Shown here piece by piece: positions 6,931 to 22,265 of a stretch of DNA of 26,831 bases. The translations under genes and the position numbers were made by a program. Source of the DNA: a virus (Duplodnaviria; Caudoviricetes). The notes beneath the pieces are model-generated. The model saw only the letters and a list, made by a program, of their open reading frames with translations. It did not search any database and was not told the DNA's origin. The stretch is from positions 1 to 26,831 of the IMG/VR virus record IMGVR_UViG_3300010043_000013; one strand, written 5' to 3'. Positions within the stretch are counted from its first letter, which is position 1. Every line of letters begins with the position of its first letter.

Positions 6931-7449
6931 TCAGTCCTTCAACAGTGCCGGCCCGCCCAAATCCTTGCGGTAGACCATCTCGTAAGGCCGGTAGCCGAGT
7001 TCCGGCATCAGGTTGTCGTGCGGCGCCCCGACCTTGGTGCGGGCGAGCGCAATACGCACACCCAGCCGCTCCAGCTCAGCCAGCGCAGTTTCCCGCAACC
7101 GCCTGCCGATGCCCTTGCGCCGGTACTGCGGAAACACGAACCACGCTTCGTCTTCGGCAACCCGGACCCCATAGTGCAGATCATCGTGCCACAGATGGAT
7201 CGAGTAACCGACCGGCGCCCCGTTGTCCTTGCGGCGCGCGCCGATGATGACGAGCCGCCCCTGCTCCTGCAGTTTCTTGTAGGCCGCGATGTTAAGCTTG
7301 GTGTGGCGGCCACGCAGCTCGAGCGCGTGCGCGTTGAGCATCGGCAGGTAGGGCTCAATCGAATCGAGATCGATCTCCTCGCGCCCATAGGCGATATCGT
7401 CGGAGGCGAACTCGCCGGCCCGGATTGCCATTGCGCTGTGCATATCCAT
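6931..7449 (-). CDS. GNAT-family N-acetyltransferase
   Basis: Acetyl-CoA motif A FVFPQYRRKGIGRRL and C-terminal LGY. Position between nozzle and ejection genes is typical of podoviruses. Confidence 0.9.
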   Translation of the reverse strand: MDMHSAMAIRAGEFASDDIAYGREEIDLDSIEPYLPMLNAHALELRGRHTKLNIAAYKKLQEQGRLVIIGARRKDNGAPVGYSIHLWHDDLHYGVRVAEDEAWFVFPQYRRKGIGRRLRETALAELERLGVRIALARTKVGAPHDNLMPELGYRPYEMVYRKDLGGPALLKD

Positions 7450-13782: not shown

Positions 13783-14799
13783 CTATATGACCAGAAACTG
13801 CAAACCGTCGAATTTGCCGTGGCACTTCGGCTTGACGTTCACGAGTTCAAGAAGGGTGAGAATTGCACTGATGTAGCCAAATTGGTTGTTGGGTAGAGTT
13901 GATTCGAAGCCGGTGAAGGTAAAGGCTGCGCGTTCGTGGAGATACAGAGAGAGGTAGTTGGTGTTGATGATATATAATGTACCCTCCGGGCAGTAGGGAT
14001 CCGCGTAAAACGGAATGCCGGCAATATCCAGTGCCTGGAACGAGCTGTGACCGACGAAGTTGGCTGAAGCATCCAGTCTCTCCCCGGGGTTGATGACGTA
14101 TCTCTCTTGCGGGGTGAAATCCTGCGCCAACAGGGTCCAGGTTCCGAAACCCATGATGCCGATTTGCGGCATTTCACCAGTGGTTTTGGTCACCTGGGCG
14201 ATATATTGCAACATCAGATTTCTAGTCGGCGTAACGTTGCCGGCATTATGCACATAGGTGGATTTCCAGAACTGATTCTGCGTTCTGTTAATGCCGCCAT
14301 AGGTCAACGCAAAAGTGCCGTCATCGATGGCCGCCGGCAGACCGATCATCTGCTGCGTATTGGCGACGTTATTGAACAGGGTAAGCGCGAATGTATCGAT
14401 GCTGACGTTCGTGGCGTCATTCATCCTTGCGTCAATTAATGGGACTATCGAATAGTCCAATTGCACGAGCCCCTCGAACCCAAGAAAAGGCACCGGCGTA
14501 CAGAACGCTTTCAAGTTGAATTCCGCGTTCTGGATCCCCGGCATCACCCCCGGCTGGTTGAACGATCCTGAATAATCGACCCACTGCCCCGACACCATCG
14601 GGGCACCTTGTACTGGTGCAGTAATCGGCGACAGGCCCCCAGTCGCTACCTGTGCCGCAGACATCAAACACGCCATAAGTGGGGCACTCTTCCAGAGCTG
14701 GACGTATACTCTCGGCATGAATGCACGCCTAACTACACTAGTCAGCTCTTGTGCAATCGCACCTTGTGCTGGGATGATTCCCTGGCCAAGTATAGGCAA
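13783..14799 (-). CDS. Major capsid protein (338 aa)
   Basis: Size and position. Motifs MIGLPAAIDDG..TYGGINR...FW, GIPFYADPYCPEGTLYIINTNYL and C-terminal PKCHGK. TTG start with AGGAG SD. Confidence 0.9.
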   Translation of the reverse strand: MPILGQGIIPAQGAIAQELTSVVRRAFMPRVYVQLWKSAPLMACLMSAAQVATGGLSPITAPVQGAPMVSGQWVDYSGSFNQPGVMPGIQNAEFNLKAFCTPVPFLGFEGLVQLDYSIVPLIDARMNDATNVSIDTFALTLFNNVANTQQMIGLPAAIDDGTFALTYGGINRTQNQFWKSTYVHNAGNVTPTRNLMLQYIAQVTKTTGEMPQIGIMGFGTWTLLAQDFTPQERYVINPGERLDASANFVGHSSFQALDIAGIPFYADPYCPEGTLYIINTNYLSLYLHERAAFTFTGFESTLPNNQFGYISAILTLLELVNVKPKCHGKFDGLQFLVI

Positions 14800-14816: not shown

Positions 14817-14969
14817 CTACAACCGGCAGTCTATCTGATATGACGGGACCGTCCCGCTCCAGATATCCGGTTCGAGGTCAGCGACTCGTTGCCCGCGACC
14901 ATGGCGAGACGACCACAGCTCGAGGTTCTCGGGTCTGTTGTCGTGGCGAATGCCGTTCCTGTGGTGCAC
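14817..14969 (-). pseudogene. HNH endonuclease remnant / mini-HNH (50 aa)
   Basis: Hand translation VHHRNGIRHDNRPENLELWSSRHGRGQRVADLEPDIWSGTVPSYQIDCRL*. Canonical HNH_3-type motif, N-terminal part missing. Confidence 0.8.
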
Positions 14970-15533
14970 CTATCTCCTGAATCCGGACGACAGATTCCGG
15001 TTCTTGAATTCACTGATGATGTTGTAGGCCGCGTCCATGGAAGCAGTTCTCGGGTCCGCGGCGAAGTCCTTGAACGCCATCGGCTTGCCGTCCCGTCCGC
15101 TGACGGTTGGGAAATCCCACTTGGCGCCCGGCCGCTCGCTCTGCGGCGGCGGCTGGTAGCGCGGATCCGTCTCCGGGTTCTTGGCTGCGTACAGCACTGC
15201 CGCGTCATCCCACGGGATGCCGCCCAGCCGGGTGCGCTCCTTGTCGATCTCGCCGATCTGCTCGTCGCTGTAGCGATCGCGCAGTTTGTCGCGCTGCCGC
15301 TCGTGTTTTTCCTTTTCCTTCTCGGCGGCGTGGCGCTGGCGCTCCTGGGCAATTTCGTTCTTGAGCTGCTGGAACTGGTTGTGCTGCACGACATCGGGGA
15401 ACGACGCCCGCGCGCGCTGCGGGTCCACCCTGTTGACGAGCTGGGCCAGTCCGGGGCGAGTTTGTGGGTTATGGCCCAGCTCGTACAGCAGACTTGCCAG
15501 ATCTGCCTGCTGTTCCACGCTCAGATCGCTCAT
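14970..15533 (-). CDS. Probable capsid scaffolding protein (187 aa)
   Basis: Charged coiled-coil middle, immediately upstream of the capsid gene, ATGA overlap. Confidence 0.65.
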   Translation of the reverse strand: MSDLSVEQQADLASLLYELGHNPQTRPGLAQLVNRVDPQRARASFPDVVQHNQFQQLKNEIAQERQRHAAEKEKEKHERQRDKLRDRYSDEQIGEIDKERTRLGGIPWDDAAVLYAAKNPETDPRYQPPPQSERPGAKWDFPTVSGRDGKPMAFKDFAADPRTASMDAAYNIISEFKNRNLSSGFRR

Positions 15534-15607
15534 CGCCGTGACCGCCTTGGTTTGGGGAAGGTCTTTCGCCCGTGCCGGCGCACCATTTTGCGACCACGCC
15601 GGGCCAT
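15530..15607 (-). CDS. Arg-rich peptide B (25 aa) MARRGRKMVRRHGRKTFPKPRRSRR
   Basis: AGGAGG SD 7 nt upstream. Starts 1 nt after the peptide A stop and its TGA overlaps the scaffold ATG. Confidence 0.8.
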   Translation of the reverse strand: MARRGRKMVRRHGRKTFPKPRRSRR

Positions 15608-15608
15608 C

Positions 15609-15686
15609 TCAGTACCTCCTGCCCTTGCGGGCTCTTCTTGCTTTTCGGCTGGCAGGCACCATGACCATTCGACGTCGTCGCGCCAT
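15609..15686 (-). CDS. Arg-rich peptide A (25 aa) MARRRRMVMVPASRKARRARKGRRY
   Basis: AAGGAG SD 8 nt upstream. With peptide B it fills the intergenic gap exactly. Confidence 0.8.
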   Translation of the reverse strand: MARRRRMVMVPASRKARRARKGRRY

Positions 15687-15699
15687 TGCATCATCTCCT

Positions 15700-15891
15700 T
15701 TAGAACGCGCCCTGGATGGCGGTCTTGAGCGTTGCGTAATCTCCCTGCACCTGCGTCGGTGCGGCAGAGCCTTCGAGCAGCACCAGCGATATCGTCGGGT
15801 CTGCGGCGTACTGGGTGACCCAGATGACATGGGCGGGATTGACGGCAATGACCTGTCCGCCATTGACTTCGGTGAGTTCAATCAGCGTCAT
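15700..15891 (-). CDS. Small protein resembling the FlbD/SwrD-like pattern (63 aa)
   Basis: LIELTEVNG..IAVNPAHV.WV pattern, GGAGGT SD. Family call by eye only. Confidence 0.6.
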   Translation of the reverse strand: MTLIELTEVNGGQVIAVNPAHVIWVTQYAADPTISLVLLEGSAAPTQVQGDYATLKTAIQGAF

Positions 15892-15909
15892 GGGCGGTAC
15901 GACCTCCGG

Positions 15910-16104
15910 TCATCGTTCCCACTTCCTTGCGAAGCTTCCGGTCTGCGTGCCCATCCGTTTTTCGAGCTCACGCGCCCGCTCCGAGCGGCCCGGGATCAGC
16001 GGCACATCCGGCATCGGATTGACGAACTCGGTGAAGTTCTGCCGCGCGTTCTCGAGCCACGCCGTCGAGCGTTCACCCGGGATCGGGCAACTGCGACCGC
16101 TCAA
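15910..16104 (-). CDS. Hypothetical protein (64 aa); start corrected to TTG 16104
   Basis: TTGA overlap with the upstream stop, GGAGG SD. MSGRSCPIPGERSTAWLENARQNF... Confidence 0.65.
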   Translation of the reverse strand: MSGRSCPIPGERSTAWLENARQNFTEFVNPMPDVPLIPGRSERARELEKRMGTQTGSFARKWER

Positions 16105-16301
16105 ATCGGCCTCCCCCGCACGGCCTGCGGGCCGCCGCGCTCGAGCGTCATCTTGTTGCGGTCCCACTTGCCGCGGGCCGCATCGGTGAAGCCGCCGAAC
16201 TGCGAGTAGGTTGGCGGGTTTCTAAACTGCCCGTCCTCCATGCTGCGCTTCTGCAGGTTGCTGGTATTGACGCCTTTGGGTTTCAAGTAGTCCTGCGCCA
16301 T
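16101..16301 (-). CDS. Small basic head-module protein (66 aa)
   Basis: Strong TAAGGAG SD. Confidence 0.8.
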   Translation of the reverse strand: MAQDYLKPKGVNTSNLQKRSMEDGQFRNPPTYSQFGGFTDAARGKWDRNKMTLERGGPQAVRGRPI

Positions 16302-16325
16302 GGCCGACTCCTTATTACTATGTGT

Positions 16326-16778
16326 CTACTGCGCCCCTTGCGGGAATCCCCCGCCCATTTCCGCCGGTCCCATGCCCGGCGGCGGTGCAGGCGGGGCTCC
16401 GCCTGCCCCTCCCGCCATTCCCGCAGGCGCCGACCCGGCAAGGGGTGACGGGGGCGGCTGCGCCATCCGCGCACGCGCGGCGGGATCGAGATCCTGATCG
16501 GCGGGTTTTCCGAAGACGCTGTTAAGACTGCGCAATGCGCCCATTACGCCGTTGAATTCCTTGGAGCCGGGGTCGAAGCTGAGCGCCGCCACCTGGATGT
16601 TGCGCATGCAGGCGCGGATTTGGGCCACGGCCGCAGCCTTCACCCCTGCTCCCTGTCCCGGACTGACCATCGGTGTTGGTCCCGGCCCGCCCGCCCCGCC
16701 GATGGGAGAGCCGGGGAGCCTGGGCTGGCCGCCCATGCCTCCCGGCATCATCATTCCTGGTGTGGGACGCAGCGCCAT
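16326..16778 (-). CDS. Pro/Gly/Met-rich protein with a central helical hairpin (150 aa)
   Basis: Fills the gap after the terminator. No obvious SD. Confidence 0.75.
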   Translation of the reverse strand: MALRPTPGMMMPGGMGGQPRLPGSPIGGAGGPGPTPMVSPGQGAGVKAAAVAQIRACMRNIQVAALSFDPGSKEFNGVMGALRSLNSVFGKPADQDLDPAARARMAQPPPSPLAGSAPAGMAGGAGGAPPAPPPGMGPAEMGGGFPQGAQ

Positions 16779-16830
16779 GCACGGGAAAATACACTTAATA
16801 CCACGGCTTGCATAGATCAGTTATATCAAC
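16779..16830 (-). promoter_or_regulatory. AT-rich putative promoter region for the head operon (possibly leaderless)
   Basis: Local AT enrichment. TATTTT lies 7 nt before an SD-less ATG, -35 is poor. Follows a terminator. Confidence 0.3.
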
Positions 16831-16866
16831 ACCAGAGATAGCTGCTGTATCTCCTTGCCGCGCATG

Positions 16867-16893
16867 AAAAAAACCGGCCACGAAGGGCCGGTT
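16867..16893 (-). terminator. Intrinsic terminator
   Basis: AACCGGCC-CTTCGT-GGCCGG followed by T7 on the minus strand. Confidence 0.9.
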
Positions 16894-16927
16894 AGAGAGC
16901 GCGGATATGTGGGGTGGGAACAGGCCT

Positions 16928-16999
16928 TTAGCGGCGGCCTCGCCGGTGACGCCTGCGGCGTTCCTGGGCATTAGCGAGGAGCTTAGTCCACATCAACAT
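16928..16999 (-). CDS. Arg-rich peptide C (23 aa) MLMWTKLLANAQERRRRHRRGRR
   Basis: AAAGGAA SD 5 nt upstream. Overlaps the end of the 105-aa gene and is followed by the terminator. Confidence 0.7.
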   Translation of the reverse strand: MLMWTKLLANAQERRRRHRRGRR

Positions 17000-17300
17000 G
17001 TGCGTTCCTTTCGGTTGCGGGCACTGCTGGACCCTTGCGCTCCTTATTATACAGGGGGTTGTGCAGGTGAGCAAATGTAGAGAGTATGCGTCTGCGTCTA
17101 AGTGTCGGAATTACATCTAACAATGCCAGCGCCGGCAGCAGGCGGGAGCAGTCCTGCTCGGCCTCGCGCAGCGCCCGCTCAAGCTCGGGCAGCGGCCAGT
17201 GGCAACGCACCAAAGTCCGCAGGCATCGCAGTTGTGCGATGCGCTCCGCAGGAGCGACATCTTTTCTGAACGGCCCGAAGGCCTCAGCGGTGCCCGCCAT
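16983..17300 (-). CDS. Hypothetical helical protein (105 aa)
   Basis: Overlaps the portal 3' end, Leu/Arg-rich helical pattern. Confidence 0.7.
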   Translation of the reverse strand: MAGTAEAFGPFRKDVAPAERIAQLRCLRTLVRCHWPLPELERALREAEQDCSRLLPALALLDVIPTLRRRRILSTFAHLHNPLYNKERKGPAVPATERNAHVDVD

Positions 17301-19107
17301 GCCCCGCGGCCTTCTTGCCGGTGATGACGGCGATTCTGTCTTCCGGCGGCAGCGACTGCAGCATCTGCGCCTGCTGGCGCTGCTGCATCTGGAGGCCGTG
17401 CAGGATAGCGTCCCGATTCGGCGGGTGCAGCATGCGCACCAGCATTTCCTTATCGATGGCCGCCGCCTTGATCAGCACCCCGGCCATTTCCCTGGCATCA
17501 TCGATGAACAGCGGCGAGTGCGCATGTGCGGACACTTTCATCCGCAGCTGCGTGGCGATCTGCGCCGGCAGGAAGGCCGGCGCCTCCTGCGGGATGATGG
17601 GCGTATCATCGTTCTTCATCATCAGCTTGACGCCGACGTCACCGATGCGGGTGAGCGAGGGTTCAAGGGCTAACGCCGCCTTCTTGATTCTCCCTGACCC
17701 TGTCCTCGCGGCCTGCTGCGCATGCGCTTTTGACCGAACGCCTTCCGCGCCCTGGCCCATGATAACGTCGGTAAGACCGCTCGCCTCAAGGAAAAACTGA
17801 CCGATCTCGTTGACTTCAGCAAATAGATCAGGAGGCATCTGCGGATGTAATTCTTCGACTTTGGCGTTTGGCATTTGCTCGAGGATATAACTGTCGGCTT
17901 CGCCGAAAGCTGCGAACTTCTCATCGGAGATGCCTGCCATACCGGTCCCGACGCGTGGGGGATACGCCTGACGATCCAGTATGTCGGCGATCTGCTCCAT
18001 GCGTTCATTGAGCCAGTCCTGCAGTCCGGTGAGCGCATCGATGTGGGCCTCTCCCCAGTAGTAGTTCCACTTCCGGTAGGGGCAGATCCTGGTGAACGGG
18101 TGTTCTCCCGGCAAAAACGGATTGCTCTGCGAGATAGTGAAGTCATCATCGCCCGGCGCGTCGGTATCGAACAGCGACACCAGTTCGCCGTCGCCGACGC
18201 GTCGGCGGCGTCTGCGGACGCGACGGGATTTCTCTTCCAACAACTTGCGCATCTTTGCACTGCTCATCATCGCCGCGACGGTCCGCTTGGAGTCTGCAAT
18301 CACAATGTCCGGCTCGATGACGTGAAAGATTCTGTAATCATTGGTCGTGGAGTCCCACGCCCACAGTTCATCGAACAGCACCATGGGATGTTGCGTTCTG
18401 GCCTGATAATTGTCTGTCGGTGTGTAGTCTGGATTCACCGATCCGATCATATTGCCTGAGAGGTTCATGCCTCCGGTACCGGCAATAATGAGTCTCGTCA
18501 GCATATCCGGGAACGGCATCGGCCGTGCTTCCTGCACGGTCGAGATGCGCTCGATATCGCTGCCGCGGCCGGCGCGAACCAGCCGCTGTACCGCATCGTA
18601 GTATTCCAGCGGGTACGTATGGCAGAACGCCTCCTGTGCATCCAGATTCGGAATGTCCTCACGAAACACACCGAATTCAGCCGGCGAGATAAGCGTCGCA
18701 TATCCTTCCTTGGCGACTTCGTTCCATCCCTGTTTGACATGCATGGTGTTATAGACAAGCGACCACAGGATGCCGTCCATCATCAGGTCATTGAGGCCCC
18801 ACGCCTGGAAGTCCTCATTGAATTCGTCCTGCAGGGCGATCACCTGGCGCACCACCTGCTCGGGCGCATTGGCCTGGGCGGCGATCTGATAGAACGCATG
18901 GTCGGGGCTGTAGAGAAAGCTGCTCACCAGATCGAGGTGGCTCTTGATCCGGTTATACCTGACCGGATCGGACCCTGCGGCGCCGAACAGATAGTAGCGC
19001 TCTCGCCGATCGCAGACATGGGATCGGTCCCGCTGCGTTTCCTTGCAGCGCTGGATCAGCCACATCACGCGGGCGCACAAATCATCCCAGTTATCGGGGA
19101 AGATCAT
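17284..19107 (-). CDS. Portal (head-tail connector) protein (607 aa)
   Basis: Size and position after the terminase. Motifs RYNRIKSHLD, HPFTRICPY....YYWG.A.ID.L..LQD.LN, SGLTDVIMG, Gln-rich C-terminus. Confidence 0.9.
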   Translation of the reverse strand: MIFPDNWDDLCARVMWLIQRCKETQRDRSHVCDRRERYYLFGAAGSDPVRYNRIKSHLDLVSSFLYSPDHAFYQIAAQANAPEQVVRQVIALQDEFNEDFQAWGLNDLMMDGILWSLVYNTMHVKQGWNEVAKEGYATLISPAEFGVFREDIPNLDAQEAFCHTYPLEYYDAVQRLVRAGRGSDIERISTVQEARPMPFPDMLTRLIIAGTGGMNLSGNMIGSVNPDYTPTDNYQARTQHPMVLFDELWAWDSTTNDYRIFHVIEPDIVIADSKRTVAAMMSSAKMRKLLEEKSRRVRRRRRRVGDGELVSLFDTDAPGDDDFTISQSNPFLPGEHPFTRICPYRKWNYYWGEAHIDALTGLQDWLNERMEQIADILDRQAYPPRVGTGMAGISDEKFAAFGEADSYILEQMPNAKVEELHPQMPPDLFAEVNEIGQFFLEASGLTDVIMGQGAEGVRSKAHAQQAARTGSGRIKKAALALEPSLTRIGDVGVKLMMKNDDTPIIPQEAPAFLPAQIATQLRMKVSAHAHSPLFIDDAREMAGVLIKAAAIDKEMLVRMLHPPNRDAILHGLQMQQRQQAQMLQSLPPEDRIAVITGKKAAGHGGHR

Positions 19108-19831: not shown

Positions 19832-20356
19832 TTATTCTTTTGGGCTGGCCAGCTCCAGCCAATGTCTTATATTCCGTTCCCACGCCCGCCGCATGACCAG
19901 CGGATCGGACGACATCTCCTCTTCGAATGTCACTTCCGGAGCGCGTGCCCAGCCTATTCTCTGGAACACTTCGTTTTCAGACGGCGACAGCGATTTGAAC
20001 CACAATCTGCCGTTCTGGACGCTTGGGCGGAAGTCGCGATTAGCGATCAGCTTGCTGAGCACGCCGTGGCGTTCATCGATTCTTCCGAGGCCTGTGGCTG
20101 GTAGTCCGCGGGTGATATTCTGATTGGCGGCCGGTGGCGAAGGTCCGCGCTGCAACAACGGCTCCACGCTGTTCCATCCGATGGCTGGCGGTTCCGCCGC
20201 CATCGACATCGGCACGCGCACCGCCGGTCCCGGCACCTGTGGGGCGCCGCCGTAATACTTCCCACTTCCTCTCACTGCCGCCAGCGCATCGTGCAGCGGC
20301 TGCGGCAGCAGGGGATGCAGCCAGGAGGGGAGCAGCGGGTCGTCATCATTTGGCAA
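19832..20356 (-). CDS. Hypothetical protein (174 aa)
   Basis: GAGGTG SD, overlaps the terminase end. Confidence 0.7.
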   Translation of the reverse strand: MPNDDDPLLPSWLHPLLPQPLHDALAAVRGSGKYYGGAPQVPGPAVRVPMSMAAEPPAIGWNSVEPLLQRGPSPPAANQNITRGLPATGLGRIDERHGVLSKLIANRDFRPSVQNGRLWFKSLSPSENEVFQRIGWARAPEVTFEEEMSSDPLVMRRAWERNIRHWLELASPKE

Positions 20357-22265
20357 GTGGCGGCACCTCTTTGAAGCCGATATTCTGGCGGCGCAGGAAT
20401 CCGGTGATGATTCTGTTCACCTGTGATTCACCGTGGTTCTTTTCGACCACCGCACTATGTTCCTTGGTCATCCGCATGTTCATCAAGCGGGTACGCAACC
20501 ATTTATTGTACGCCTCCCAGGCGAGTGCGCCGGCGATCACCCGGTCATCCTTGGCGGCGCCTTCGGCCGAAATATATCCACCATCATTGATGATCCTTCT
20601 CATTTCCTCCAGCATGGGGACACTGCGGATCTGCACCCTGCCGAGCTCGAAGGCATCCTTGAACCTTGCCATGATCATGGGTTTGAGCTGCTCGCTCATG
20701 ACCCACTGATACACCATGTCACCGGACCCGACGTTATCAATGCGCTGATAGAAGAAGTGATGCATGCGGTTGAGGCAATTGCGGAGTTCCTGATTATCCG
20801 GGGTGGGGGCCATGTGCTGCAGGTCGCGTTTGACCTGTTGCAACTCGGCGAACACCGCCTTGCCGGGTCCGTTCATTTCCAATATCACCCTGCATTCCGT
20901 CTGCCCATAGAAGCCGGCCAGGTGAGCGAGCACCCACGCCGTCTGATACATACTCAAGCTGCTACTGGCGAACTCGGCGACCTGCTCCATGCCTTCGGCG
21001 AATGCTCTCCACACCTGAATGACGTTTTTGTCCGCGGTATCGCTCGAGCCATAAGCGGGATCGCAAGACAGCACGTAGTATCCGTATCGGCTTGCATGCT
21101 GCCACAGCAGGAGCTCGGCATCGCGATACGGATGAGACACGACCTGTATCGTCTCCCACTTATTGCCCATCCTGTACCTGTACTTCATCGCCCCGAAGTG
21201 GCGGGCGGCCCGGATGGCTGCCGTGAGGTCGGTGCTGTGGAAGTACTTGGCGCCCGTCGCTTGGAAACAGTCATCCGCCGTCCACGGGACTTCCTGGTCC
21301 ATGAGCGCTTGGTCGTTCTGTTTCTTTTCGCTGAGATGCCACCTGTACCACGCCAGCTGCTGCAATGAGACATCGTAGCCATATTCCGCCTTCACTGCAC
21401 GCACGCGCTCGCGTTCCAGCCTGGTAATGGAAGCGTCGGGCATAAAATACTTGTAGAACGGATGATCGGTGGCGAACTGATTGCGCTCATCTCTCCACCA
21501 ACCAACGAAAATGCAGCGCTTTGTCTTTGAGCGCAGCGCATCCTGCCACTGCTCTTCCCACCAGTTAAAGCCGTTAGCTGTTGTCTCTTGTATGCTCATA
21601 CGGTGAGGATAGATGGTGGAGGTCGTGGATTCGAATGCAGCAACGTCTTCCTCGTTCCCGTAGAACGCAGCCTCAGTCATATGCACGTAGTTGGAGGCAC
21701 CCGACCGCCCGAGGCCGCCCTTGCGGTTTTCCTGGGTCCCTGCTATCAAGTAGCGGAACCGAGAGCCATTTTTCCAGGCAATAATGTTACGGTTGTGATG
21801 CAACAATTCCGGCTTTAGCCGAACCATCTGGCCACCGATGCGAGCTTTGCGCGGAATCTCATCGTAGAAAATCTCGATCGTGTTCCTCCAATCATCGCGA
21901 GCCTGCTCCTGGTGTAGTATGAAGGTTCCAAGCAAACCTTTATGCTCAAATGCCCAGAACACGTCTAAAGCAATAAAAAACGTTGTGCAGCCGCACTGAC
22001 GATTTTTCAAAATCAGAAAATCTGTTATCCCGTCCGCCTTTCCCTTGCACAGCTCGTCGAGGATATACCATTGGCTGCCGAGCAGCCTGAATGGGACGAC
22101 ACCCATGTCCTTGCTGAGAATCTTCAGCTTGGACACGAATTTCAGGAAGCGCTCGCGCGGGAACGGCGCGACCTGTCCCCGCGAGAGCTTACCGATATCA
22201 AACGCGGAATCTGCCGCGGCGTGCATCAGGTGGCCTTGTGAGTGCGTCGGCGATTGACCAGCCAT
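20346..22265 (-). CDS. terL: Terminase large subunit
   Basis: Walker A-like LILKNRQCGCTT, Walker B-like VHMTEAAF, coupling motif ETTANG, FVGWW, nuclease residues in SCDPAYG and KDDRVIA. Exact start uncertain. Confidence 0.95.
   Translation of the reverse strand: MAGQSPTHSQGHLMHAAADSAFDIGKLSRGQVAPFPRERFLKFVSKLKILSKDMGVVPFRLLGSQWYILDELCKGKADGITDFLILKNRQCGCTTFFIALDVFWAFEHKGLLGTFILHQEQARDDWRNTIEIFYDEIPRKARIGGQMVRLKPELLHHNRNIIAWKNGSRFRYLIAGTQENRKGGLGRSGASNYVHMTEAAFYGNEEDVAAFESTTSTIYPHRMSIQETTANGFNWWEEQWQDALRSKTKRCIFVGWWRDERNQFATDHPFYKYFMPDASITRLERERVRAVKAEYGYDVSLQQLAWYRWHLSEKKQNDQALMDQEVPWTADDCFQATGAKYFHSTDLTAAIRAARHFGAMKYRYRMGNKWETIQVVSHPYRDAELLLWQHASRYGYYVLSCDPAYGSSDTADKNVIQVWRAFAEGMEQVAEFASSSLSMYQTAWVLAHLAGFYGQTECRVILEMNGPGKAVFAELQQVKRDLQHMAPTPDNQELRNCLNRMHHFFYQRIDNVGSGDMVYQWVMSEQLKPMIMARFKDAFELGRVQIRSVPMLEEMRRIINDGGYISAEGAAKDDRVIAGALAWEAYNKWLRTRLMNMRMTKEHSAVVEKNHGESQVNRIITGFLRRQNIGFKEVPPLAK

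Follow-up and report, generated by a model that had tools for sequence, protein, structure and literature searches.

In models of tailed phages, naked DNA is packed against its self-repulsion, and small cations are the counter-ions. Sperm protamines, adenovirus pVII/mu and baculovirus P6.9 are short, arginine-clustered and nearly free of acidic residues, and the genomes concerned are stored or packaged in nucleoprotein form. Among phages, microvirus protein J and gokushovirus VP8 are tiny basic peptides taken into the capsid along with the genome; J, of which these ssDNA viruses carry 60 copies as one essential protein, joins basic arms to a hydrophobic anchor for the capsid.

Among tailed phages, the internal proteins of T4 (IPI, IPII and IPIII) are described in the available part of PMC9026906 as basic, non-essential, variable among relatives, present in about 300–370 copies per head and DNA-binding in low salt; they measure 8–20 kDa and carry a cleaved capsid-targeting propeptide, and IPI is an anti-restriction factor. 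T7 gp7.3, according to excerpts of PMC11784390 and bioRxiv 10.64898/2026.05.18.726046, is a 99 aa, assembly-essential product of a single gene, with a structured anchor and an acidic/low-complexity middle, and the latter source gives 45–450 aa, basic ends and a P/A/Q-rich and acidic middle for gp7.3-like proteins in general. The disruptin gp28 of phiKT is a 56 aa amphipathic helix with a net charge of +7, encoded in the lysis cassette of a podophage without a recognised spanin (excerpt of bioRxiv 10.1101/515445). A sequence-only reading of the locus analysed here had assumed that tailed phages rely on polyamines and cations, a premise that overlooks T4 IPI–III and T7 gp7.3.

Three arginine-rich micro-genes in the head region

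The window, i.e. the whole stretch of 26,831 nt analysed here, contains three tiny micro-genes, A, B and C, of an uncultured short-tailed phage, and these are real genes, selected at the protein level. The coordinates, translations and R/K counts proposed by the sequence-only reading were all reproduced, with the three ORFs on the minus strand (Table 1). Arginine makes up 40 % of A and B and 35 % of C; the alleged lack of acidic residues holds for A and B, which have neither D nor E, whereas C has one E. As had also been stated, a well-spaced SD-like site precedes each ATG, and the position of B's SD in the final codons of A points to translational coupling from A to B; a junction of the same type is found in L163. 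The end of B indeed overlaps the scaffold start as ATGA. Together, A and B take up the whole interval from the 63-aa ORF to the putative scaffold gene, with a 1-nt spacer. The supposed direct vicinity of the scaffold and capsid genes is interrupted by the HNH remnant. C lies 1.2 kb from A and B and overlaps the end of the 105-aa ORF by 17 nt. Of the further ORFs, the one of 63 aa is likely a moron, and the one of 64 aa is present only where B is among the searched loci (the window and its copies, L005, L068 and L070).

Table 1. Features of the head region, in window coordinates
Feature	Position	Strand	Remarks
Major capsid protein (podovirus type)	13783..14799	-	phrog_9953, E 1.8e-29; NF033394 capsid_maj_Podo, 129.7 bits (cut-off 80)
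HNH remnant	14817..14969		within the 170-nt stretch separating scaffold and capsid genes
Putative scaffold protein	14970..15533	-	187 aa; assigned by position, no informative family match; conserved in relatives
Peptide B	15530..15607	-	25 aa, net +13; 10 R + 3 K; conserved K(T/R)FP motif
Peptide A	15609..15686	-	25 aa, net +12; 10 R + 2 K; Arg arms flank RMVxVPASR core
SD of B	15615..15620	-	AGGAGG, 7-nt spacer; -11.6 kcal/mol; formed by A's last two Arg codons (AGG AGG)
SD of A	15695..15701	-	AAAGGAG, 8-nt spacer; -8.7 kcal/mol; overlaps stop codon of 63-aa ORF
63-aa ORF upstream of A	15700..15891	-	restricted to the window and identical copies among loci searched
64-aa ORF	15910..16104	-	TTG start with SD
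66-aa basic head-module protein	16101..16301	-	conserved
150-aa Pro/Gly-rich head-module protein	16326..16778	-	conserved
Intrinsic terminator after C	16866..16893	-	8-bp stem, U tract; z -2.2
Peptide C	16928..16999	-	23 aa, net +8; 8 R among last 10 residues
105-aa ORF, portal to C	16983..17300	-	overlaps C's start; 53–67 % identity in L002, L005, L070, L361
SD-like site of C	17006..17011	-	AAAGGA, 6-nt spacer; duplex energy -5.6 kcal/mol, weakest of the three
Possible sigma-70-type promoter for C	17046..17074	-	TTGCTC-17-TATAAT; missed by a stricter scan
Portal protein	17284..19107	-	phrog_156, E 9e-7; portal matches in GenBank
Large terminase	20346..22265	-	L002 orthologue matches phrog_2

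Chance was assessed with a filter for ORFs with an SD, 10–35 aa, at least 35 % R+K and at least six R/K in the last ten residues. Applied to the 2,484-nt portal–capsid stretch, it returned two ORFs, i.e. A and C (B, with only five R/K in its last ten residues, was excluded), whereas among 1,000 dinucleotide shuffles 995 gave none, five gave one and two were never reached. We discarded a 54-aa ORF (15530–15694) that crosses A in the +1 frame and continues into B: its ATGs lie 0–3 nt from the SD, the frame of A is clearly better conserved against L005, and L068 has A and B as separate genes.

Selection at the protein level is seen in a pN/pS of 0.27, in 11 synonymous against three non-synonymous changes between the window's C and L005 (compared via the identical copy L001), and in five pairs with identical peptides that differ by 18 synonymous and no non-synonymous changes. 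C, the core gene of the family, consists of an Arg/His/Gly tail and a variable N-terminal extension, which among core peptides is missing or mutually unrelated. When the final 12 positions of 57 core peptides are pooled, 658 of 684 residues are R, K, G or H and, to judge from this composition, the conserved feature is charge, not sequence. The lower-GC freshwater clade uses more lysine, and micro-genes persist at 39–45 % GC. Across the family, the peptides span 10–57 aa (1.5–6 kDa), with 35–75 % R+K in the short forms; A, B and the array families D–G retain non-charged motifs. Mean hydrophobicities range from -0.76 to -1.0 and maximal moments, which are Arg-driven, from 0.46 to 0.94; core peptides are nearly without hydrophobic residues.

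Distribution and expression signals

The sequence-only reading called for basic micro-ORFs between the portal and capsid genes of relatives, and these were found there in three clades and in a nozzle-adjacent slot in a fourth. SD-led basic micro-ORFs occupy the portal–capsid slot in most loci of each set (close relatives, 56 of 62; a freshwater-type clade, 57 of 63; a third clade, 43 of 50); the controls gave 0–1 on the antisense strand of that slot (close and freshwater sets) and no sense match elsewhere, i.e. in 544 kb of the close and 453 kb of the freshwater set. In the fourth clade, with around 35 % capsid identity, all 44 loci carry two to seven micro-genes immediately behind the tail-nozzle gene and ahead of the GNAT/ejection genes, and homologues of A (core RMVxVPASR) and of B occur in this nozzle-array clade. 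A locus with 22 % capsid identity (L390) has a micro-gene in the same slot. Homologues of A were also detected in L005 and L068, and those of B in L005, L068, L070 and L237; A is common to clades with nozzles around 20 % identical. Scans starting from the peptide fell beside virion genes of this phage family in 28 of 28 cases. Where the portal gene is inverted, the micro-gene still lies behind it in four of five assessable loci, and in L053 the core gene is inverted on its own.

The three peptides had been proposed to form one system. Instead, C represents the core gene, is nearly universal and often has a promoter and a terminator of its own, whereas A and B are accessories of patchy occurrence. 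The number of copies varies between 0 and 7, with coupling within the tandem arrays, suggesting a dose function. The core gene is absent from 6 of 63 freshwater and 7 of 50 third-clade loci; the capsid tree includes three of the six core-less freshwater loci, which group as a nested clade, and the complete record of one core-less freshwater locus (G001) has only a different 30-aa basic ORF.

Capsid homologues were found in 2,612 of 8,000 scored clusters, in a phage group of soil and freshwater type, and matching stretches of the freshwater clade number about 1,900. In GenBank, close relatives are limited to two uncultured phages from springs, in which reverse-strand ORFs are annotated over the micro-genes; A, B and C are all absent from a collection of 15 billion proteins, and the expectation that gene callers would miss such genes was borne out, as they are mostly uncalled. 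The capsid protein had no relative in genome_contigs, and a peptide-pattern search returned two contigs of phage-like character, one in a betaproteobacterium MAG bin and one in a Saccharibacteria bin, too weak for naming a host. Hydrogenobaculum phage 1 was rejected as a relative, having the terminase alone in common and three unconvincing SD-led basic ORFs. The peptides themselves matched no Pfam family (14 of 14 peptides, E≤10) and no PDB sequence (A and B), searches of little power with such short low-complexity queries, and neither NCBIfam (seven of seven peptides, E≤10) nor PHROG; the NCBIfam and PDB searches likewise gave no match to small basic ribosomal proteins (bL37, bTHX). In the ESM Atlas, the only match (0.78, unnamed) was to a 48-aa array peptide. 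No description of these peptides was found in the literature covered, and the available portions of PMC10681747, PMC11323111, PMC13320001 and PMC10450192 contain nothing on such peptides.

Several signatures suggest high expression of the core gene, i.e. CGT makes up 24 % of its arginine codons vs 7–8 % in the capsid, portal and scaffold genes, TAA is the stop codon in 39 of 57 vs 47 of 214 cases, and the median SD reaches -7.9 kcal/mol vs -6.8 for the capsid gene, bearing in mind that codon and stop biases may have other causes and that the rows are related. In A, eight of ten arginine codons are CGA, AGA or AGG, unlike in a highly expressed gene. The promoter candidate of C may be a by-product of coding, since it lies inside the 105-aa ORF; among 57 close relatives, promoter-like sites precede C in 26 (1.45 expected) and terminator-like elements follow it in 48 (3.7 in shuffles), 43 to 126 nt after the stop codon. 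For the head genes downstream, a promoter of their own could not be established (6 of 41, against 2.0 in shuffles). An H-type pseudoknot, in which 91.9 % of cells are paired and 5 of 12 pairs covary, lies 5' of the second peptide gene of the freshwater clade, and a covarying stem-loop lies 5' of soil core genes (5 of 9 pairs, in 14 leaders picked by motif from 57). The leaders differ from clade to clade, none being detected 5' of the window's C (z 0.03), and the Rfam search of leaders gave no match, only a tRNA in L064.

Possible roles of the peptides

Location in the virion module and composition would fit nucleic-acid binding, and we infer that the peptides are translated, bind nucleic acid, are packaged and screen charge. 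Our best reading, to which we assign a probability of around 45 %, is that they are internal polycations, made in bulk, that partly screen the packaged DNA. Made late, they would be enclosed within the procapsid or the portal–tail channel and bind the incoming DNA, so that phosphate repulsion would be partly screened with the genome not fully condensed, easing late packaging or stabilising the filled head. The core gene would supply near-pure charge, and A and B add a short conserved non-charged motif through which they may dock to a structural component, much as T7 gp7.3 is anchored by its C-terminus; the peptides would probably exit with the DNA at infection.

Assuming 415 copies each (T=7 stoichiometry), A, B and C together would offset only around 16 % of the phosphates, which number about 84,000; for a core peptide alone the share would be 5 % and for the largest arrays 47 %. 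The wholesale condensation put forward earlier is not supported by this, and polycation condensation jams ejection from lambda (available part of PMC7377361). Full protamine-style condensation is therefore doubtful, given the offset, the ejection block and the loss of the core gene in nested lineages. It is tempting to speculate about phage-encoded protamines in operons of seven or more chained polycation genes, with a partly condensed, low-pressure nucleoprotein genome, head pressure tuned by gene dosage and peptides passed to the host with the DNA, a scenario that we regard as possible, if rather doubtful. Against partial screening by bulk polycations itself stand the small offset, the jamming of ejection, the loci without the core gene and the arginine codons of A; in addition, the conserved structured RNA leaders imply tight regulation, perhaps needless for a bulk filler, and T4 IPI, formerly taken for a DNA-binding protein, turned out to act against restriction.

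IPI, being basic, located in the head and active against restriction, favours an action on nucleic acids in the cytoplasm, where the peptides could shield concatemers or ejected DNA from host nucleases, or compact the nucleoid or block ribosomes for late shut-off. The core gene is often an autonomous promoter–leader–gene–terminator unit, inverted alone in L053, and patchy gain and loss with diversified arrays resembles arms-race genes; nevertheless, genes that in four clades keep strictly to the virion module, the translational coupling of A, B and array genes to their neighbours and a core peptide without specificity-bearing residues make this role, which would be compatible with packaging, unlikely. 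Adjacency to the portal or nozzle gene would also suit low-copy assembly factors of the T7 gp7.3 type, six to twelve copies of which would link the portal with adaptor and nozzle and keep the DNA end in place: gp7.3 itself, as far as the cited excerpts show, is small and basic and binds nozzle and DNA end, and non-charged motifs are kept in A, B and families D–G. This is distinctly unlikely, since a fixed-site factor needs neither one to seven paralogues nor high-expression marks, the 150-aa and 66-aa neighbours match the gp7.3-like pattern better, and A is shared across such divergent nozzles. For peptides that neutralise or organise acidic internal (ejection) proteins instead of DNA (organisation being an option of the sequence-only reading), one may point to the net charge of -26 of the window's 499-aa candidate internal protein and to arrays immediately upstream of the ejection-gene block. 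The whole records inspected lend this no support: with ejection proteins assigned by position and trends judged by eye, no relation with dose emerged, G013 combining a protein of -45 with a single core peptide, G010 near-neutral candidates (+1, -2, 0, +14) with two peptides, and G004 having a -31 protein without A or B, so that the idea appears very improbable.

Lambda N and Tat represent a type of arginine-rich RNA-binding peptide, and peptides of this type could control late genes via the pseudoknot and the covarying stem-loop in the leaders. These structures vary by clade, are lacking before the window's C and may merely stabilise or gate the peptide mRNA, and tandem arrays with free R/K exchange are unsuited to specific RNA recognition; we consider such control improbable. 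Attenuator leaders have fixed sensing codons and a fixed spacing to the terminator controlling the downstream genes. That C is an arginine-sensing leader of this kind could be argued from its 3' terminator, and that the ORFs are a GC-rich by-product from the Arg-rich off-frames of GC-rich DNA; both are largely refuted and retain hardly any probability, given the variable stop-to-terminator spacing, the free substitution of Arg by Lys, a cassette that moves with the portal or inverts uncoupled from the downstream genes, the pN/pS value, the purely synonymous changes between identical peptides and the persistence at low GC. Finally, a role in lysis, with the peptides disrupting the outer membrane as phiKT gp28 does, would agree with the lack of PHROG spanin matches in 114 ORFs from three records (an insensitive search), with 11 records without a convincing lipobox ORF (a crude and insensitive regex, two weak candidates), with an endolysin gene about 1.7 kb from the array in G006 and with the replaceability of spanins by cationic peptides (excerpt of 10.1101/515445). 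Here, too, the probability is low, because gp28 as described in that excerpt is an amphipathic helix within the lysis cassette, core peptides are nearly devoid of hydrophobic residues, and the micro-genes lie in the head or nozzle block, far from the endolysin-like genes in G010 and G009.

Significance and relation to known systems

A conserved, dosage-variable, protamine-like family in the virion module makes it testable whether some phages produce their own counter-ions. The low-pressure nucleoprotein genome speculated on above would be a chromatin-like mode of packaging, for which no precedent in tailed phages was found in the literature searched. At 10–57 aa, the peptides can be synthesised, and binding, condensation and effects on packaging and ejection can be measured. 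The family also marks a blind spot of annotation, its genes falling under calling thresholds and being overwritten by reverse-strand calls in GenBank, and of virion proteomics, as trypsin would destroy such peptides.

Compared with T7 gp7.3 and phiKMV-like gp34, the micro-genes adjoin the portal gene too, with the difference that the core gene follows it (three clades), whereas gp7.3-like genes precede it in the excerpts cited. Sequence similarity was not detected; the peptides here measure 10–57 aa, have 0–7 paralogues and were lost in some lineages, and A, B and C comprise only 23–25 aa without a P/A/Q-rich acidic centre. They are basic like the T4 internal proteins and, with the core gene missing from the loci counted above, may be comparably variable, but are smaller (1.5–6 kDa), share no propeptide and have no PHROG match. 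With phiKT gp28 they have in common that they are small, cationic and found in phages without a recognised spanin (insensitive searches here), whereas the micro-genes lie outside the lysis cassette. As in microvirus J, A may pair basic arms with an anchor, although J follows a different, ssDNA packaging route. The peptides resemble protamines, pVII/mu and P6.9 in being short, Arg-clustered, nearly free of acidic residues and present in tandem copies, many of them beginning with MAR; no Pfam profile of protamines or P6.9 matched at E≤10, and this phage threads its DNA by a terminase–portal motor into a preformed head. As far as the sequences tell, the likeness to protamines is most likely compositional and convergent.

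Arg-rich micro-genes in the window and its close relatives

Our comparisons show that the Arg-rich micro-genes near the capsid gene are a real gene family, previously undescribed in the literature searched, and, judged by sequence, one comprising a near-universal core gene, mobile accessory peptides and whole arrays. The sequence-only reading was right about the genes themselves, while the family proved wider than it saw and the three peptides A, B and C do not form one set.

The window record (64 % complete) represents a podovirus-type phage, with terminase, portal, small head genes, scaffold, capsid, adaptor, nozzle, GNAT and ejection-type genes following each other on the minus strand, the scaffold, nozzle and ejection proteins being assigned from position. 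All three micro-genes were confirmed in the window sequence where they had been predicted, each with an SD-like site before its start (table). The SD of B is written by the last Arg codons of A, and the proposed coupling of B to the scaffold gene holds, i.e. the B stop codon and the scaffold start overlap. C, 1.2 kb upstream of A and B, is followed by a terminator. A fixed filter recovered A and C in the portal–capsid stretch, B failing by one residue, and two filter-passing ORFs occurred in none of 1,000 dinucleotide shuffles of that stretch.

Features located in the window and in related viral loci (L numbers)
Feature	Location	Strand	Remark
A	window 15609-15686	minus	SD-like site upstream
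B	window 15530-15607	minus	SD-like site upstream
C	window 16928-16999	minus	SD-like site upstream
HNH endonuclease remnant (PF13392)	window 14817-14969		between scaffold and capsid genes
GNAT acetyltransferase gene	window 6931-7449		immediately precedes ejection-type genes
tRNA gene	L064:5022-5095		immediately after core peptide gene
Integrase gene	L363:12193-13215		record G004, closest complete relative
Operons of 7-8 chained Arg-rich genes	L311:13016-14371, L246:12526-13890, L293:10959-11636		11-58 aa, of several distinct motif families; morons, e.g. resolvase-like genes, lie in between
30-aa basic ORF	L316:6206-6298		record G001; downstream of ejection-type genes
Hairpin plus H-type pseudoknot	L072:4800-4880, L073:5505-5584		and 31 other freshwater loci; immediately 5' of SD of second peptide gene
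Second pseudoknot-like element, A-rich loop	L073:5627-5691, L106:4672-4732		and other freshwater loci; after last peptide gene, directly 5' of TTGAC word; pairing by eye
Soil core-gene leader stem-loop, asymmetric internal loop	L020:2731-2799, L034:4277-4346		and 12 other loci

The search for syntenic basic micro-ORFs in relatives, proposed with the original claim, was run on 71 viral loci found with the capsid protein (73–99 % identity; 72 rows with the window). The portal is on the same strand in 62 rows, the window and two copies identical to it among them, and in 56 of these an SD-led basic ORF lies between the portal and capsid genes. This slot yielded 61 ORFs in 128 kb versus one on the opposite strand; elsewhere, there were none in 544 kb of sense DNA and four antisense. 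All six misses still contain a recognisable form of the gene, which is either longer or inverted or has a weaker SD or an ATC start. The portal–capsid gap of L025 retains an intact core frame and an SD with ATC as start, representing either a rare start codon or recent inactivation. The ten excluded rows lack the portal (two) or have it inverted relative to the capsid operon (8 of the 71 loci: L023, L024, L027, L028, L029, L032, L033 and L068); three of these eight end too early, four have the gene behind the portal on the portal strand, and in L068 it remains with the capsid genes. The conserved slot gene is of the C type, A or B being found only in the window copies, L005, L068 and L070.

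The genes bear marks of protein-level selection. Of the last 12 positions in 57 core peptides, 658 of 684 residues are R, K, G or H. In 28 pairs of core genes chosen by capsid-gene similarity, pS was 0.59 and pN 0.16 (uncorrected ratio 0.27), and five pairs with identical peptides showed 18 synonymous and no non-synonymous changes. Across 18 distinct A genes, the motif columns vary widely in synonymous codon choice, with Ser drawn from both its codon families.

As side observations, the capsid matches of L016, L019 and L048 exceed the others by 250–390 nt, suggesting insertions. The integrase of G004 indicates that the clade may be temperate; no prophage was found in the searched collection of genome contigs.

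Distant clades and arrays

Two spring phages in GenBank, with 56 % capsid identity, each have a pair of 13-aa basic ORFs in the portal–capsid slot; annotated reverse-strand ORFs cover three of the four. Their clade, the freshwater clade (GC 39–60 %), has one to three basic ORFs in 57 of 63 portal-bearing loci, from 82; none was found antisense, nor in 453 kb of other sense DNA. With a slightly different filter, the third clade (capsid ~40 %) has a basic ORF in the 2.6 kb preceding the capsid gene in 43 of 50 loci. In the fourth clade (capsid ~35 %), all 44 assessable distinct loci, from 80, harbour two to seven basic ORFs within 1.5 kb after the nozzle gene under a relaxed filter, i.e. 210 sense versus 12 antisense and four in the 1.5 kb upstream. 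These arrays, coupled via TAATG/TGATG junctions, hold the core type, A (eight loci), B (one) and further motif families; a GNAT counterpart of about the size of the window gene immediately follows them, and its product might modify N-termini or lysines of the peptides.

Pattern searches were also started from the peptides: all 28 matches to one pattern in IMG/VR adjoin a capsid or portal gene of the family; of 37 A-motif matches, 28 are short peptides rich in Arg, each adjoining family genes, and nine are unrelated frames; and a third pattern gave three matches, all beside family genes, one at 22 % capsid identity. Since loci partly overlap between searches, these counts cannot be summed.

On a capsid tree of 39 rows, A needs at least three changes, which fits transfer or recurrent loss; the three freshwater loci without the peptide that the tree includes group as a nested clade. 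One complete record, G001, is without the core gene and has a different 30-aa basic ORF, possibly a substitute. Separately, L203, L206, L209 and L233 carry an extra basic ORF of 28–31 aa with an Arg/Lys/Gly tail, far from the head genes (6.5–7.1 kb upstream of the capsid gene).

Expression signals and leader RNAs

The core gene frequently makes up a unit of its own: a promoter-like site precedes it in 26 of 57 cases (1.45 expected) and a terminator follows it in 48 of 57 (3.7 expected). It prefers CGT and TAA more strongly than capsid, portal and scaffold genes do, and its SD strength equals that of the capsid gene, the p-values for these biases being overstated because the rows are related. 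Window A uses mostly CGA, AGA and AGG for Arg.

Freshwater leaders contain a conserved H-type pseudoknot (91.9 % of cells paired, covariation in 5 of 12 pairs), a candidate new cis-regulatory RNA. Fourteen soil leaders, chosen by motif from 57, share a covarying stem-loop, after which a pyrimidine tract could pair with the SD. Neither element matched Rfam, and a folding test gave no unusual fold in the leader of window C.

Probable role and comparison with known systems

Charge conserved without sequence, copy numbers from zero to seven, marks of high expression and confinement to head or nozzle gene blocks together suggest a bulk counter-ion for nucleic acid that would be built into the particle. 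We favour partial screening of packaged DNA charge, at a probability of about 0.45. With 415 copies of each assumed, A, B and C together would balance 16 % of the phosphates in a 42-kb genome, against 47 % for the largest arrays. Polycations that condense DNA jam its ejection (PMC7377361); full condensation is therefore less likely. Precedents for basic phage proteins with packaged DNA are T7 gp7.3, which touches the DNA end in the channel (PMC11784390), and the hundreds of basic internal proteins in T4 heads (PMC9026906).

A cytoplasmic or post-ejection role, for which T4 IPI is the cautionary case, is unlikely, and a low-copy assembly role like that of gp7.3 even more so. RNA regulation would be surprising, and just as much so disruptin-like lysis, where no spanin was recognised among 114 ORFs of three records (PHROG) or in 11 records searched for a lipobox (two weak candidates), both being insensitive searches. 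The suggestion that the peptides organise or buffer the acidic internal (ejection) proteins gained no support, no trend being seen among the whole records that were inspected.

Among known families, the peptides had no match in Pfam, PHROGs, NCBIfam or PDB. None of ten exact sequences was present in a 15-billion-protein collection, which does contain 14 unnamed homologues of a 48-aa array peptide. We did not find such genes described for tailed phages in the literature searched, and these families may already appear, with no function assigned, in small-phage-gene catalogues. The peptides would act in the manner of protamines, adenovirus mu/pVII, baculovirus P6.9, microvirus J/VP8, lambda N and small ribosomal proteins, to which they are likened here without being assigned to any of these groups.
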